Assembly (NCBI GenBank): GCA_963832575.1
Contig: CAWHUT010000002.1
Coordinates: 125,827 to 189,826, forward strand
Origin: an uncultured Alphaproteobacteria bacterium
GTDB lineage: Bacteria; Pseudomonadota; Alphaproteobacteria; ATCC43930; CGMCC-115725
Length of the DNA stretch: 64,000 bases
Direction: 5' to 3'
Within the stretch, counting starts at the first letter, position 1; each line of letters starts with the position of its first letter. A program made the position numbers and the translations under genes. The notes beneath the pieces are model-generated. The model saw only the letters and a program-made list of their open reading frames with translations, was not told where the DNA came from and did not search any database. Of this stretch, positions 25,562 through 43,492 are shown piece after piece.

Positions 25562-28500
25562 ATGCCGCGCACCGCGAAAACAGCAGATGCCCGGCCTGGC
25601 CGCAACGGCGTGGCGGCGCCCCCGCCGCCGCCCACAGACCACGGCCACGCCGCTGGGGCTAACGGCCACGGCAACGGGCTCATCGGCGATCAATCCATTG
25701 ATGCCCATTTGCTGTTGGACGCCTTGCAGGCCATGCGGCGCGGGGATTTTTCGGCCCGGCTCCCGCATGAAAAAATCGGTCTCGCCGGCAAAATCGCCGA
25801 TGCTTTCAACGAGATCGTCGCCGCCAATGAGCGGATGGCCCAACAGCTCGAGCAGGTTGGGCAGGCCGTGGGCCGCCAGGGCAAGACGCGCAAGCGCGTG
25901 AATTTCGGCGTTTCCATAGGCGCCTGGGGCGAGATGGAGGCATCGCTCAACACCCTTATTGACGATTTGCTGTGGCCGACGACGGCCGTCACCAGCGCCA
26001 TTGCCGCGGTGGCGCGCGGCGACCTGCTGCAGACCGTCGAGCTCGAAGTCGATGGCCGGCCGCTCGAGGGCGAGTTCCTTCGCTCCGCCACCATCGTCAA
26101 CACGATGATCAAGCAGCTCAGCATCTTTACCTCGGAAGTGACGCGCGTCGCGCGCGAAGTGGGTACCGACGGCAAGCTCGGCGGGCAAGCGCAGGTCCGC
26201 GAGGTGACCGGCGTGTGGAAGGACTTGACCGAGAGCGTCAACTCCATGGCCAGCAACCTGACCGCCCAGGTCCGCAACATCGCCGACGTGACGATCGCCG
26301 TCGCCAACGGCGATTTGTCCAAGAAAATCACGGTCGACGTGCGCGGCGAGATTCTTGCAGCTCAAGGAAGTCATCAACACGATGGTCGACCAGCTGCGCT
26401 CCTTCGCGTCGGAAGTGACGCGCGTTGCGCGCGAGGTCGGCACCGAAGGAAAGCTCGGCGGCCAGGCCCTCGTCCCCGGCGTCGCCGGCACCTGGAAGGA
26501 CCTCACCGACAGCGTCAATGCGATGTGCGGCAACCTGACAGACCAGGTGCGCAACGTCGCGCAGGTCACGACCGCCGTCGCGCGCGGCGATCTCTCGCGC
26601 AAGATCACCGTCGACGTGCGCGGCGAAATTCTGGAGCTCAAGGACACCATCAACACCATGGTGGACCAGCTCAACGCCTTCGCCTCCGAAGTGACGCGCG
26701 TCGCGCGCGAGGTCGGCACCGAAGGGCGCCTCGGCGGCCAGGCCCAGGTGCCAGGCGTCGCCGGGACCTGGAAGGATCTGACCGACAACGTCAACTCGAT
26801 GGCGAGCAACCTCACCGCCCAGGTTCGCAATATCGCCGAGGTCTCGACCGCCATCGCCAACGGCGATCTGTCGAAGAAGATCACGGTCAGCGTGAGCGGC
26901 GAGATCCTGCAGCTCAAAGAGACCATCAACACCATGGTGGACCAGTTGAACGCCTTTGCCGGCGAGGTCACGCGCGTCGCGCGCGAGGTCGGCACCGACG
27001 GGCGGCTGGGTGGCCAGGCCAACGTGCTCGGCGTCGCCGGCACCTGGAAGGACCTGACCGAAAGCGTCAACTCGATGGCGAGCAACCTCACCGCGCAGGT
27101 CCGCAACATCGCCGAGGTCTCGACCGCCATCGCCAGCGGCGATCTGTCGAAGAAGATCACGGTCAACGTCAGCGGCGAAATCCTGCAGCTCAAAGACACC
27201 ATCAACACGATGGTGGACCAGTTGAATGCCTTCGCCGGCGAGGTGACGCGCGTCGCGCGCGAGGTCGGCACGGAGGGCAAGCTCGGCGGGCAGGCGCAGG
27301 TGAAGGGCGTCGCCGGCACCTGGAAGGACTTAACCGACAGCGTCAATTCGATGGCGAGCAACCTCACCGGCCAGGTCCGCAACATCGCCGAAGTGGCCAC
27401 CGCCGTCGCGCGCGGCGACTTGTCGCGCAAGATCACCGTCAATGTCAGCGGCGAAATCCTGCAGCTCAAGGAAACGCTGAACACGATGGTGGATCAGCTC
27501 AACGCCTTCGCCGGCGAAGTGACGCGCGTCGCGCGCGAGGTTGGCACCGAAGGGCGCCTGGGCGGCCAGGCCAACGTGCCGGAAGTGGCCGGGACCTGGA
27601 AGGATTTGACCGACAGCGTGAATTTCATGGCCGGCAACCTGACCGGCCAGGTCCGCAACATCGCCGAGGTCGCGACCGCCATCGCCAACGGCGACTTGTC
27701 ACGCAAGATCACCGTCGACGTGCGCGGCGAAATCCTTCAGCTCAAGGAAACGCTGAACACGATGGTGGACCAGCTCAACCGGTTCGCCGGCGAAGTGACG
27801 CGCGTTGCGCGCGAGGTCGGCACCGACGGGCGGCTCGGCGGCCAGGCCAACGTGCCGGGCGTCGCCGGCACCTGGAAGGATTTGACCGACAACGTCAACT
27901 TCATGGCCAGCAATCTGACCGGCCAAGTCCGCAACATCGCCGAGGTGACGACGGCCGTCGCGCGCGGCGACCTGTCGCGCAAGATCACGGTCGACGTGAA
28001 GGGCGAAATCCTCGAGCTCAAGAACACCATCAACACCATGGTCGATCAGCTCAACGCCTTCGCCTCGGAGGTGACGCGCGTCGCGCGCGAGGTCGGCACC
28101 GAGGGCAAGCTCGGCGGACAGGCCGCCGTGCCGGGCGTCGCCGGCACCTGGAAGGATTTGACCGACAACGTCAATTTCATGGCCAGCAATCTGACTGGCC
28201 AGGTCCGCAACATCGCCGAGGTCGCGACCGCCATCGCCAGCGGCGATTTGTCGAAGAAGATCACCGTCGACGTGCGCGGCGAAATCCAGCAGCTCAAGGA
28301 GACCATCAACACGATGGTCGAGCAGCTTCGCTCCTTCGCCGCCGAGGTGACGCGCGTCGCGCGCGAGGTCGGCACCGAAGGGCGCCTGGGCGGCCAGGCC
28401 GTCGTCCCCGGCGTCGCCGGCACGTGGAAGGATTTGACCGACAACGTCAACCTGCTCGCGGCCAACCTCACCACGCAGGTTCGCAACATCGCCGAGGTGA

Positions 28501-43111: not shown

Positions 43112-43492
43112 ATGACCAAAATTCTCTACGTCGAGGACAACGAGGACAATTTCTACATGTTGTCCAACCGGCTGAAGCGGCGCGGCTATGACCTCGTCAT
43201 GGCGCCGGACGGCGAGAGCGGCATCGCCCTGGCAAAGAGCGAGGCGCCGGCGCTCATTCTCATGGATTTGAGCCTGCCCGTCATGGACGGATGGGAGGCA
43301 ACGCGGCGCCTGAAGGCCGCGAGCGAGACGCGTCACATCCCCATCATTGCGCTCTCCGCTCACTCGATGGCCGGCGACCGCGAGAAAGCGCTCGCCGCGG
43401 GCTGCGACGAGTTCGACACCAAGCCGGTCGAGTTGCCGCGCCTTCTGGACAAGATCGCGACCCTGCTTGCGAGCGCCGGGACGACGCCCTAA
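43112..43492 (+). CDS. Stand-alone receiver-domain response regulator
   Basis: KILYVEDNEDN...ILMDLSLPVMDG...ALSAH...DTKP. Starts 3 nt after the kinase stop. Confidence 0.9.
   Translation: MTKILYVEDNEDNFYMLSNRLKRRGYDLVMAPDGESGIALAKSEAPALILMDLSLPVMDGWEATRRLKAASETRHIPIIALSAHSMAGDREKALAAGCDEFDTKPVELPRLLDKIATLLASAGTTP

Follow-up and report, generated by a model that had tools for sequence, protein, structure and literature searches.

The signalling island at positions 25562-43492 of the window, the whole stretch of 64,000 nucleotides that we analysed, is very probably a mosaic of three independently inherited two-component modules that lie side by side, together with two loosely attached genes, g6 and g7. 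A first-pass annotation had read the ten genes, g1 to g10 in order along the DNA, as one branched relay, but gene order is kept only in blocks: comparison with related loci recovered g1 and g2 (module M1), g3-g4-g5 (M2), and g9-g10-g8 (M3), and did not recover the full ten-gene order. We consider it likely that this mosaic, taken together with a relay mechanism proposed below for M3, is the best explanation of the island.

Pfam scans of the 18-kb island returned 13 receiver (REC) domains, four complete kinase cores, and one HisKA domain without an ATPase domain, reproducing the inventory of the first-pass annotation. They also bore out its two outputs, an OmpR-type regulator and a class III cyclase, and the translations contain the two H-box classes that it had described, SHELRTPLN-type in g1, g9, and g8 and AHDFNNLL in g2 and g4. 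Its run of ten signalling genes holds as a run, but g7, an HD protein, is not recognisably a signalling protein. In an alignment of the receivers, all 13 keep the acceptor Asp, and the conserved Lys is absent from REC1 of g2 only. A promoter and terminator scan of the island found fewer sites than in shuffled sequence and was uninformative on operon borders.

CckA-type kinases use a separate histidine phosphotransferase, as in the CckA-ChpT-CtrA/CpdR relay. For membership in the Hpt family we took a PF01627 match and a monomeric four-helix bundle with its His in an HxxKG-type motif. No PF01627 match at E ≤ 0.01 was found in the ten proteins of the island, and the alternative-frame ORFs of 75 aa or more in the interval 25400-43700, 104 in all, gave no Hpt match either; 103 of them had no Pfam match at all, and the other matched Ring_hydroxyl_B upstream of the cluster. 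The earlier claim that the cluster lacks an Hpt is thus upheld, and all of the intergenic gaps are too short for an Hpt gene. Nor did any of the ten genes score above threshold as a ChpT-type HPTransfase, the sole match being a sub-threshold one to the ATPase domain of g2, and no ChpT-like gene was found in the cluster or in the scanned flanks. An Hpt or ChpT gene may lie elsewhere in the source genome, outside the 64-kb window. Multi-step phosphotransfer inside the modules is very likely, and an internal stand-in for the missing Hpt is plausible in M3 only, in the form of the ATPase-less DHp domain of g8.

Two lines of evidence, module-wise synteny and base composition, argue for the mosaic. 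Among M1 and M3 loci with at least 4 kb of flank, and in the four M2 contigs (L162-L165), no genes of a second module were found near any related locus: homologues of g3-g10 were present in none of 26 g1+g2 loci with at least 4 kb downstream, and homologues of g1-g7 in none of the 28 M3 loci whose sequence extends 4 kb or more past the cyclase. The collections searched contained no close relatives of the source genome, and the synteny rests on more distant loci. GC3 of g3, g5, and g6 is 0.67-0.75, compared with 0.82 ± 0.03 elsewhere. Because only blocks of gene order are conserved, we assign the OmpR-type regulator to M2 and the cyclase to M3. A single branched, multi-input phosphorelay, with lone receivers linking the kinases to both outputs, would fit the tight packing of the genes across 18 kb, the H-box classes common to different modules (g1, g9, and g8; g2 and g4), which would allow cross-talk, the resemblance of g6 to receivers of g2- and g4-type kinases, and the paralogy of the g1 transmitter to g9 plus g10. 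We nevertheless regard it as very improbable, as genes of more than one module never occur together in related loci, base composition differs between blocks, g7 and g8 lie on the opposite strand, and g1 is frameshifted in the source sequence. Some cross-talk between the modules of the mosaic may still occur.

M1 resembles AskB/AskC in its predicted architecture: the first gene codes for a three-receiver, soluble hybrid kinase of poly-HAMP-GAF type and the second for its REC-kinase-REC partner. By Pfam, g1 (25562-31919, plus strand) contains about 22 HAMP domains, a GAF domain, HisKA, HATPase, and three REC domains, and so has the array, GAF, DHp/CA, and receivers of the poly-HAMP-GAF sensory kinase family (AskA/AskB type). 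Tandem Repeats Finder placed a di-HAMP array at 26097..29074 (plus strand), with 10.8 copies of a 276-nt (92-aa) unit and 81% matches; Pfam marked 10 HAMP and 10 HAMP_2 stretches in g1, and the array also gave spurious SpoIIID and HTH_6 matches. DNA alignment with five intact homologues revealed a 1-nt insertion at 26346..26352 (gagattcTTGcag versus gagatTCTGcag), which near 26349 moves g1 from frame 2 to frame 0 and hence leaves two ORFs here. The N-terminal part (25562..26349, frame 2, plus strand), a soluble N-terminus and the first HAMP units by HAMP and HAMP_2 matches, shares 72-89% identity with the N-terminal ends of intact homologues. The main part (26355..31919, frame 0, plus strand), which carries the di-HAMP array, GAF, HisKA, HATPase, REC1, REC2, and REC3 by Pfam, is 80-90% identical to homologues, and the two parts share one frame in 20 of the 20 related loci that hold both. 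The insertion is either a real frameshift or an assembly error. No hydrophobic membrane-spanning stretch was seen when the N-terminal translation was read by eye. Two long ORFs antisense to g1 (minus strand, 25526-27484 and 27699-31529) had no family match and were set aside as by-products of the repeat and of GC content. The partner gene g2 (31935..33617, plus strand), REC-HisKA(AHDFNNLL)-HATPase-REC by Pfam and REC alignment, follows a g1 homologue directly in all 75 testable metagenome loci; ORF clustering with a GC3/GC2 gene filter found no further conserved neighbour at g1+g2 loci.

By their predicted domains, the M2 genes encode a hybrid kinase with membrane segments and a PAS domain, a single-domain receiver, and, as output, an OmpR-type transcription factor. 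Homologues of g3, g4, and g5 that are 50-72% identical are linked in four contigs, L162-L165, without the other modules. The kinase g4 (34257..36005, plus strand; 582 aa, P0128) has two TM segments, PAS_7, HisKA(AHDFNNLL), HATPase, and REC domains by Pfam; it lacks the CHASE3 sensor that many relatives carry, including several of 710-740 aa. A g3 homologue lies upstream of the g4 homologue in L163-L165. g3 itself is a single-domain REC by Pfam (ORF 33649-34194, plus strand; likely start MTEPRQ, giving 33817..34194), and its best NCBIfam matches, all below cut-offs, are PRK13435 and PhyR-type receivers. SdrG-type receivers have a PFxFATG[G/Y] motif after beta-4 and are tied to general stress response kinases; in the REC alignment, g3 reads LPFVFLTGYG at this position. 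EcfG-like sigma factors and stress genes occur near M2-related loci. The output gene g5 (36109..36996, plus strand; likely start near 36196) is an OmpR/PhoB-type REC-Trans_reg_C regulator, with matches to PF00072 (E 3e-23) and PF00486 (29.4 bits, cut-off 26.2), and reached no NCBIfam equivalog cut-off. Its homologues, 70-71% identical, adjoin g4 homologues in L162, L164, and L165 and lie about 9 kb away in L163.

The two genes outside the modules follow. g6 (37123..37497, plus strand) is a single-domain REC with a low GC3 of 0.67; by NCBIfam it resembles receivers of CckA-type hybrid kinases, with no equivalog cut-off reached, and a 55%-identical REC was found 2.5 kb from a g7 homologue in one locus only (L166). 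g7 (37548..38321, minus strand) matched the generic Pfam HD profile weakly (E 3.5e-6) and no phosphodiesterase-type HD family or HD-GYP; its nearest named relatives are the HD oxygenases PhnZ/TmpB, which are weakly similar and far below cut-offs. Homologues 75-93% identical to g7 occur in varied metabolic contexts without cyclases, and g7 is probably an enzyme outside the signalling modules. A role as phosphodiesterase partner of the cyclase was considered and rejected on account of the PhnZ/TmpB likeness and these cyclase-free contexts.

M3 combines a hybrid kinase, a free receiver, and a cyclase whose N-terminus is a DHp domain. g9 (40350..43109, plus strand) reads TM-helical sensor-TM-HAMP-PAS_7-HisKA(SHELRTPLN)-HATPase-REC-REC by Pfam, and its H445 and both acceptor Asp residues are conserved; in at least 22 loci, a homologue with 51-73% identity precedes g10- and g8-like genes. 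g10 (43112..43492, plus strand), a single-domain REC by Pfam and the proposed connector of M3, is the counterpart of g1 REC3 (38% identity), and alignment shows the g1 kinase core, REC1, and REC2 to be colinear with g9. Of 35 testable genome loci with the DHp-cyclase, 32 also have a g10-like REC (about 70% identical), which in 24 is directly upstream. These loci come from Methylomirabilota/Rokubacteria, Beta- and Gammaproteobacteria, Chloroflexota, Binatia, Verrucomicrobiia, and Stellaceae, and ORF clustering with the GC3/GC2 gene filter found counterparts of g9, g10, and g8 to be their only conserved genes. All four M3 receivers retain Asp and Lys. g8, like g7, is on the minus strand, so that g8 and g9 diverge from an intergenic region (40048..40349) in which a consensus scan found no convincing promoter; the divergent layout recurs in Stellaceae and Alphaproteobacteria loci (L003, L004, and L019). 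In a sister family, the cyclase lacks the DHp and is a REC-REC-cyclase that comes after a plain kinase (e.g., L060).

By Pfam, g8 (38491-40047, minus strand) is a HisKA-REC-Guanylate_cyc protein without HATPase. Residues 1-125 (39673..40047, minus strand) comprise, by Pfam and AlphaFold2, a HisKA DHp and two more helices in place of the ATPase domain. Residues 1-65 match PF00512 at 35.5 bits against a cut-off of 26.9 (E 1e-8), and a PDB profile search with the g8 family found the kinase DHp domains of HK853 (E 4e-9), GacS/RetS, and DivL. Across 114 homologues (62-82% identical) and 38 loci, H13 never varies and E14, T17, and N20 rarely or never do; the rest of the N-domain, outside the H-box, is variable. 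An AlphaFold2 monomer places four helices in one bundle (pLDDT 87, pTM 0.79; a monomer run does not show a dimer), and a Foldseek search with this model returned generic four-helix bundles at E > 0.07 with Hpt, Spo0B, and ChpT absent from the matches. Aligned with the g9 DHp, the N-domain shows 31% identity (E 1e-12), and because the similarity runs into the first helix of the g9 ATPase domain, it points to a kinase remnant that lost its ATP-binding domain. g8 does not qualify as an autokinase: it has no HATPase_c match, residues 70-125 form two helices in the AlphaFold2 model, and there is no N-box Asn. Compared with Spo0B and ChpT, g8 has the DHp-like hairpin and the His, two helices replace the pseudo-ATPase domain, and there is no PF10090 match; it may work like these phosphotransferases while standing outside their family. 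From the sequence of a DHp domain by itself, phosphotransferase, phosphatase, and dimerisation roles look the same.

The remainder of g8 is a receiver (residues 149-253; 39289..39603, minus strand; Pfam), whose acceptor D198 recurs in all 79 homologues, a long helix (residues 254-306, AlphaFold2 secondary structure), and a class III nucleotidyl cyclase domain (residues 329-512; 38512..39063, minus strand; Pfam Guanylate_cyc). The cyclase domain matches PF00211 (E 2e-20) and has the fold and the metal and transition-state residues of its class: D339 and D383, which bind metal, occur in 80 of 80 homologues, and the transition-state residues N459 and R463 in 77 of 78. Its closest solved structure is P. 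aeruginosa CyaB (3r5g; alignment E 9e-35). At the base-specifying positions g8 has R379 and G452, where CyaB has Lys and Thr, respectively, and Cya2 has Glu at the R379 site; 72 of 80 homologues share the Arg and 70 of 78 the Gly. This Arg/Gly pair fits neither the adenylate (Lys/Asp-Thr) nor the guanylate (Glu/Cys-Gly) pattern, and the product is therefore not predictable.

For M3 we propose a His-Asp-His-Asp relay in which the DHp of g8 would take the place of an Hpt, a reading to which we give an even chance. In this relay, g9 would autophosphorylate at H445, the phosphoryl group would pass to the Asp of a receiver, which could be one of the two in g9 or the free-standing g10, and from there to H13 of the ATPase-less g8 DHp and on to D198 of the g8 receiver, which would switch the cyclase through the long connecting helix. 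The g8 DHp would thereby do the job of an Hpt in the manner of Spo0B, ChpT, and PhyT. PhyT offers a precedent, being a kinase-like protein that carries phosphate from a single-domain receiver to a regulator by way of a conserved His (PMC5898713). Also in favour are the invariant H-box, the ATPase-less HisKA, the intact receivers, the colinearity of g9 plus g10 with g1, and the DHp-less sister family. The sequences show the domains, the conserved phosphorylation sites, and the synteny; we infer in what order the phosphate would move, that the cyclase would be activated, and what nucleotide it would make.

Two other roles for the g8 DHp have to be weighed against this relay. The domain might dimerise two cyclase chains or act as a phosphatase for the g8 receiver, with g9 phosphorylating that receiver directly. 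Class III cyclases must dimerise, the sister family works with a REC-REC-cyclase after a plain kinase and no DHp, and the H-E-x-x-T motif of the H-box doubles as the HisKA phosphatase motif. The HisKA of Dictyostelium ACR, moreover, enforces cyclase dimerisation, and its histidine kinase and receiver sites are dispensable (PMC3009899). However, the HisKA of ACR has lost its His, yet H13 and the whole H-box of g8 are invariant; and the DHp form co-occurs with a two-receiver hybrid kinase and a free receiver, which a four-step relay needs and for which direct transfer from g9 has no use. We judge this explanation unlikely. A split kinase seems less likely again: here the g8 DHp would pair with the ATPase domain or DHp of g9 and be phosphorylated directly at H13, then pass the group to its own receiver, leaving the g9 and g10 receivers as sinks or modulators. 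The DHp of g9 is indeed the closest to that of g8, with the same H-box, split kinases whose DHp and ATPase domains sit on different proteins are known (PMC3591291), and GacS/RetS, an example of DHp-DHp contact between different kinases, is among the best PDB matches of g8. Against it, g10 is the most conserved partner, at about 70% identity across phyla and usually directly upstream, and so fits an obligatory intermediate better than a sink.

If the proposed relay is correct, M3 would be a simple, testable case of an Hpt-free relay in which a truncated kinase domain is reused as a histidine carrier, and it would tie two-component sensing into cyclic-nucleotide signalling by way of a cyclase for which the usual rules predict no substrate. 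Thousands of bacteria from soil and groundwater, of several phyla, carry the unit. Somewhat short of probable, and offered tentatively, is the broader reading that M3 represents a widespread, uncharacterised type of phosphorelay in which an ATPase-less DHp fused to the terminal regulator replaces the Hpt, a hybrid kinase and a dedicated free receiver feed it, and a class III cyclase is the output; the Arg/Gly pair may mean a product beyond plain cAMP or cGMP. In the open-access papers searched, we found no characterised HisKA-REC-cyclase with a partner kinase. Dense two-component clusters tempt one toward a single large circuit; here the synteny gives three small ones, and such a map changes which experiments are sensible.

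Each module has likenesses among known systems. Like AskA/AskB/AskC of Myxococcus xanthus (PMC7643160) and the poly-HAMP-GAF-kinase family (PMC13446029), g1 is a soluble kinase in which many 92-aa di-HAMP units in series precede GAF, DHp/CA, and three receivers, and its HAMP array gives the same spurious SpoIIID and HTH_6 matches; g2 is immediately downstream of g1, as askC is of askB (PMC7643160). This likeness is one of architecture, and g1 is frameshifted in the window. In the Ask system, Rec3 of AskA contacts the partner kinase AskC (PMC7643160). The H-box of AHDFNNLL type and the receivers at the C-terminus of g2 and g4 recall the CckA-ChpT-CtrA/CpdR relay, as does the likeness of g6 to CckA receivers (receiver features, PMC9981736); all scores stayed below the equivalog cut-offs.

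For g8, cyanobacterial CyaC (REC-GAF-GAF-HisKA-HATPase-REC-cyclase) likewise joins DHp, REC, and a class III cyclase in one chain, and its kinase part phosphorylates the proximal receiver, activating the cyclase (PMC3009899); g8, by contrast, has no GAF, no N-terminal REC, and, apart from the first-helix remnant, no ATP-binding domain, so that kinase activity would come from g9. ACR also has a HisKA before its receiver(s) and class III cyclase, one that is not an autokinase and is needed for dimerisation (PMC3009899), but the ACR receivers have lost switch residues and the g8 receiver is complete. The relays KinA-Spo0F-Spo0B-Spo0A of Bacillus subtilis and Pak-SdrG-PhyT-PhyR of alphaproteobacteria (PMC5898713) combine a kinase and a single-domain receiver with a kinase-like His protein for which ATP is no substrate and a terminal receiver that carries the output. 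M3, known from its sequence, has every one of these parts in g9, g10, the g8 DHp, and the g8 REC and cyclase. It differs in that its putative histidine carrier and its terminal regulator form one chain, the carrier being a true HisKA DHp followed by two helices, whereas Spo0B is a DHp with a pseudo-ATPase domain and PhyT is of the membrane HWE/HisKA2 type; in that its kinase carries two receivers of its own; and in that its output is a cyclase in place of a transcription or anti-anti-sigma factor.

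The ten consecutive genes of the signalling island (g1–g10, window 25562–43492) lie in a window of ~65% GC, and Pfam scans reproduced the domain list of the first-pass annotation as well as its counts of 13 receivers (REC), four complete kinase cores, and a single HisKA that lacks an ATPase domain. On the plus strand, g1 (25562–31919) encodes a soluble poly-HAMP array followed by GAF, HisKA, HATPase, and three REC domains; g2 (31935–33617) a REC-HisKA-HATPase-REC protein; g3 (ORF 33649–34194, probable start 33817) a REC; g4 (34257–36005) two TM segments, PAS_7, HisKA, HATPase, and REC; g5 (36109–36996) REC plus Trans_reg_C; g6 (37123–37497) a REC; g9 (40350–43109) a helical sensor between two TM segments, then HAMP, PAS_7, HisKA, HATPase, and two RECs; and g10 (43112–43492) a REC. 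Because g7 (37548–38321, weak HD match) and g8 (38491–40047; HisKA, REC, and Guanylate_cyc but no HATPase) are on the minus strand, g8 and g9 are divergent, with a 302-nt spacer between them, which corrects the earlier reading. The translations bore out the two proposed classes of H-box. When the 13 receivers were aligned with CheY, the acceptor Asp was kept in every one and the conserved Lys in all except the first REC of g2 (31935–32310), where Val replaces it (YVPVPV); this domain may be an atypical receiver.

The proposed lack of an Hpt domain in the cluster also stands, both in profile scans of the ten proteins and in ORFs from alternative frames. None of the ten cluster proteins matched the Hpt profile at E ≤ 0.01, and the sole HPTransfase match among them, to the ATPase domain of g2, was sub-threshold. 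The other frames of 25400–43700 hold 104 stop-to-stop ORFs of 75 aa or more; a scan of these recovered no family other than Ring_hydroxyl_B, in a fragment located upstream of the cluster. An Hpt gene would not fit any intergenic gap of the cluster; the flanking genes encode catabolic enzymes, transporters, and regulators, and no phosphotransfer protein was found among those scanned in the 64-kb window. The absence of an Hpt from the cluster points to the DHp (HisKA dimerisation/phosphoacceptor) domain of g8.

The island had been proposed to form one branched relay, but related loci do not support a single conserved ten-gene unit and keep only blocks corresponding to g1-g2 (M1), g3-g4-g5 (M2), or g9-g10-g8 (M3). 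In the protein collection the source genome stands alone, with no near relatives, and synteny was therefore judged on more distant ones. Scanning an alignment of cyclase homologues against one genome per species gave 80 loci, with which the window proteins were compared by tblastn. The DHp-bearing form of the cyclase occurred in 39 of these loci, from taxa that include Methylomirabilota/Rokubacteria, Beta- and Gammaproteobacteria, Chloroflexota, Binatia, Verrucomicrobiia, Sandaracinaceae, and Stellaceae. A g10-like receiver (55–84% identity) was present in 32 of the 35 DHp-cyclase loci with a testable neighbour, lying immediately upstream in the same orientation in 24 and, as in the window, divergently in three; at least 22 also contained a g9-like kinase with two receivers. 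Clustering of flanking genes revealed no fourth conserved gene around M3, and homologues of g1–g7 were found in none of the 28 loci that extend 4 kb or more past the cyclase.

A metagenome scan with g2 gave a further 80 loci, and in 75 of the 75 that were testable a g1 homologue (76–90% identical) ended just upstream of the g2 homologue; these loci showed no further conserved neighbour of g1-g2, and none of the 26 with at least 4 kb downstream held homologues of g3–g10. Four long contigs yielded homologues of g4 (59–72% identity). All four also carry a g5 homologue (70–71% identical), near the kinase in three and ~9 kb off in the fourth; three have a g3 homologue (50–58%) directly upstream of the kinase; and M1 or M3 genes were found on none. 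Base composition agrees with the three-module split: GC3 is 0.68 for g3, 0.75 for g5, and 0.67 for g6, as against 0.82–0.89 in M1 and M3 and 0.82 ± 0.03 in the remaining window genes. The expected transcription units would be g1-g2, g3-g4 (perhaps with g5), g8 by itself, and g9-g10. Two-component genes often occur in clusters, and both M1 and M2 belong to known kinds.

In M1, the domain order of g1 fits a recently described family of soluble kinases, in which arrays of alternating HAMP domains precede GAF, DHp/CA, and receiver domains (PMC13446029). The poly-HAMP kinases AskA and AskB of Myxococcus xanthus work together with AskC, another hybrid kinase; its gene lies immediately downstream of askB, and Rec3 of AskA touches the AskC receiver (PMC7643160). 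The g1/g2 arrangement shares the layout of the Ask system, and the g1 HAMP array gave spurious SpoIIID and HTH_6 matches, as the Ask authors noted for theirs. The g1 reading frame is broken, with the N-terminal 262 codons in frame 2 and the rest in frame 0. DNA alignment with five homologues placed one extra base near 26349 (26346–26352), inside a tandem array with a 276-nt (92-aa) unit, 10.8 copies, and 81% matches. Each of the 20 related loci containing both parts has them in a single frame, and the extra base could be either a genuine frameshift or an artefact of assembly. The shifted frame runs on open for a further 2.8 kb, to 29131, and could therefore be called as a spurious Arg-rich protein of 1189 aa. 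Two long antisense ORFs across g1 (25526–27484, minus strand, 652 aa; 27699–31529, minus strand, 1276 aa) matched no family; the repeat and the high GC content probably account for them.

Just upstream of the cluster, ORF 24956–25468 (plus strand) matches only the C-terminal part of a ring-hydroxylating dioxygenase beta subunit (E 2.5e-5) and is possibly the remnant of a gene; the stretch that holds it (24–26 kb) has the lowest GC ahead of the cluster (0.607). Farther upstream is another signalling pair (19944–22283, minus strand). Its first gene (21414–22283) encodes a membrane protein whose domains are a Tll0287-like sensor and HAMP, and the second (19944–21371), 42 nt after it, a Ser/Thr protein kinase; next to the pair is an OmpA-family gene (19310–19927, plus strand).

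The kinase of M2 is a membrane-bound PAS hybrid whose H-box reads AHDFNNLL, and it is accompanied by a single-domain receiver and an OmpR-type regulator. The CHASE3 sensor found in many 710–740-aa relatives is absent from g4 and appears to have been lost in its lineage and in some Stellaceae relatives; the two TM segments at the g4 N-terminus (34257–34560) are only ~25 residues apart. Phosphate might leave the g4 receiver through a carrier elsewhere in the genome, or this receiver might be purely regulatory. The flanks of M2 relatives (L162, L164, L165) are rich in stress genes, including those for an EcfG-like sigma factor (a PhyR_sigma2 match), CsbD, Ku/LigD, and trehalose/glycogen metabolism, and these general-stress-type neighbours hint at a role for M2 in a stress response. 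The HD protein g7, originally counted as a signalling gene, is not recognisable as one: among named proteins it is related only to the HD oxygenases PhnZ and TmpB, at scores far short of the family cut-offs, and its homologues (75–93% identical) lie among metabolic genes. On one contig (L166), a receiver 55% identical to g6 (6680–7063) lies 2.5 kb from a g7 homologue (3376–4128, 86%), and a loose g6-g7 link is possible from this single case.

The g8 cyclase belongs to a large family, the best 120 of 8000 scored matches being 61–100% identical. Across 114 homologues, H13, T17, L19, and H21 of its ten-residue H-box motif are invariant and E14, R16, P18, and N20 nearly so; mean column identity is 58% in the N-domain compared with 70% over the full-length alignment. 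Searched against the PDB, the N-domain profile matched kinase DHp domains (HK853, E 4e-9; GacS/RetS; DivL) and did not match Hpt, Spo0B, or ChpT. An AlphaFold2 monomer model of the N-domain (pLDDT 87, pTM 0.79) has helices at residues 5–36, 39–63, 70–102, and 105–125, for which Foldseek returned only generic four-helix bundles; beyond it, AlphaFold2 predicts a disordered linker, the receiver, a 53-residue helix, and the cyclase. Residues 8–114 of g8 align with the g9 DHp and the first helix of its ATPase domain (BLASTP, 31% identity, E 1e-12), and g8 therefore looks like a CyaC-type kinase-REC-cyclase minus its ATP-binding domain. In a sister family that lacks the DHp, a plain kinase precedes a REC-REC-cyclase protein (for example, L060). 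Alignment with CyaB (Lys/Thr) and Cya2 (Glu/Gly) identified Arg379 (codon 38911–38913, minus strand) and Gly452 (codon 38692–38694, minus strand) as the base-specifying pair of g8, kept in most of 80 homologues. Adenylate cyclases have Lys/Thr-Asp at these positions and guanylate cyclases Glu/Cys-Gly, and the Arg/Gly pair of g8 fits neither pattern.

The transmitter of g9 (core, REC1, REC2) is colinear with the g1 transmitter (35% identity, E 3e-77), and g1 REC3 has its match in g10 (38%); g9 and g10 together thus amount to a g1-type transmitter in split form. If g10 acts like AskA Rec3, it is likely to provide the contact to the partner protein. The contig with the closest examinable cyclase homologue outside the source genome (L001, 81%) keeps a g10 homologue (93%) and only a 174-aa receiver fragment of a g9 homologue (5399–6306), reflecting either kinase decay or an assembly artefact.

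The phospho-sites of M3 are all conserved, namely g9 H445, both g9 receiver aspartates, g10 D52, and g8 H13 and D198. We infer that these sites most likely form a relay, in which a phosphoryl group would start on the g9 histidine, pass to a receiver aspartate (in g9 itself and/or g10), then to H13 and on to D198 of g8, and finally switch on the cyclase via the long helix. The g8 DHp could instead serve only as a dimeriser, as in Dictyostelium ACR, or as a phosphatase; against the dimeriser role, ACR has lost its histidine (PMC3009899), whereas the g8 H-box is invariant. In another alternative, g8 would supply the DHp part of a split kinase and receive its phosphate directly from g9 (PMC3591291).

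We found no characterised counterpart of M3 in the open-access literature, and, as far as that literature shows, the module is best called a variant of the multi-step phosphorelay not characterised before. The proposed His-Asp-His-Asp relay of M3 would have its logic in common with the KinA-Spo0F-Spo0B-Spo0A and Pak-SdrG-PhyT-PhyR (PMC5898713) systems, but would differ from both in that the histidine carrier is fused to the final regulator.
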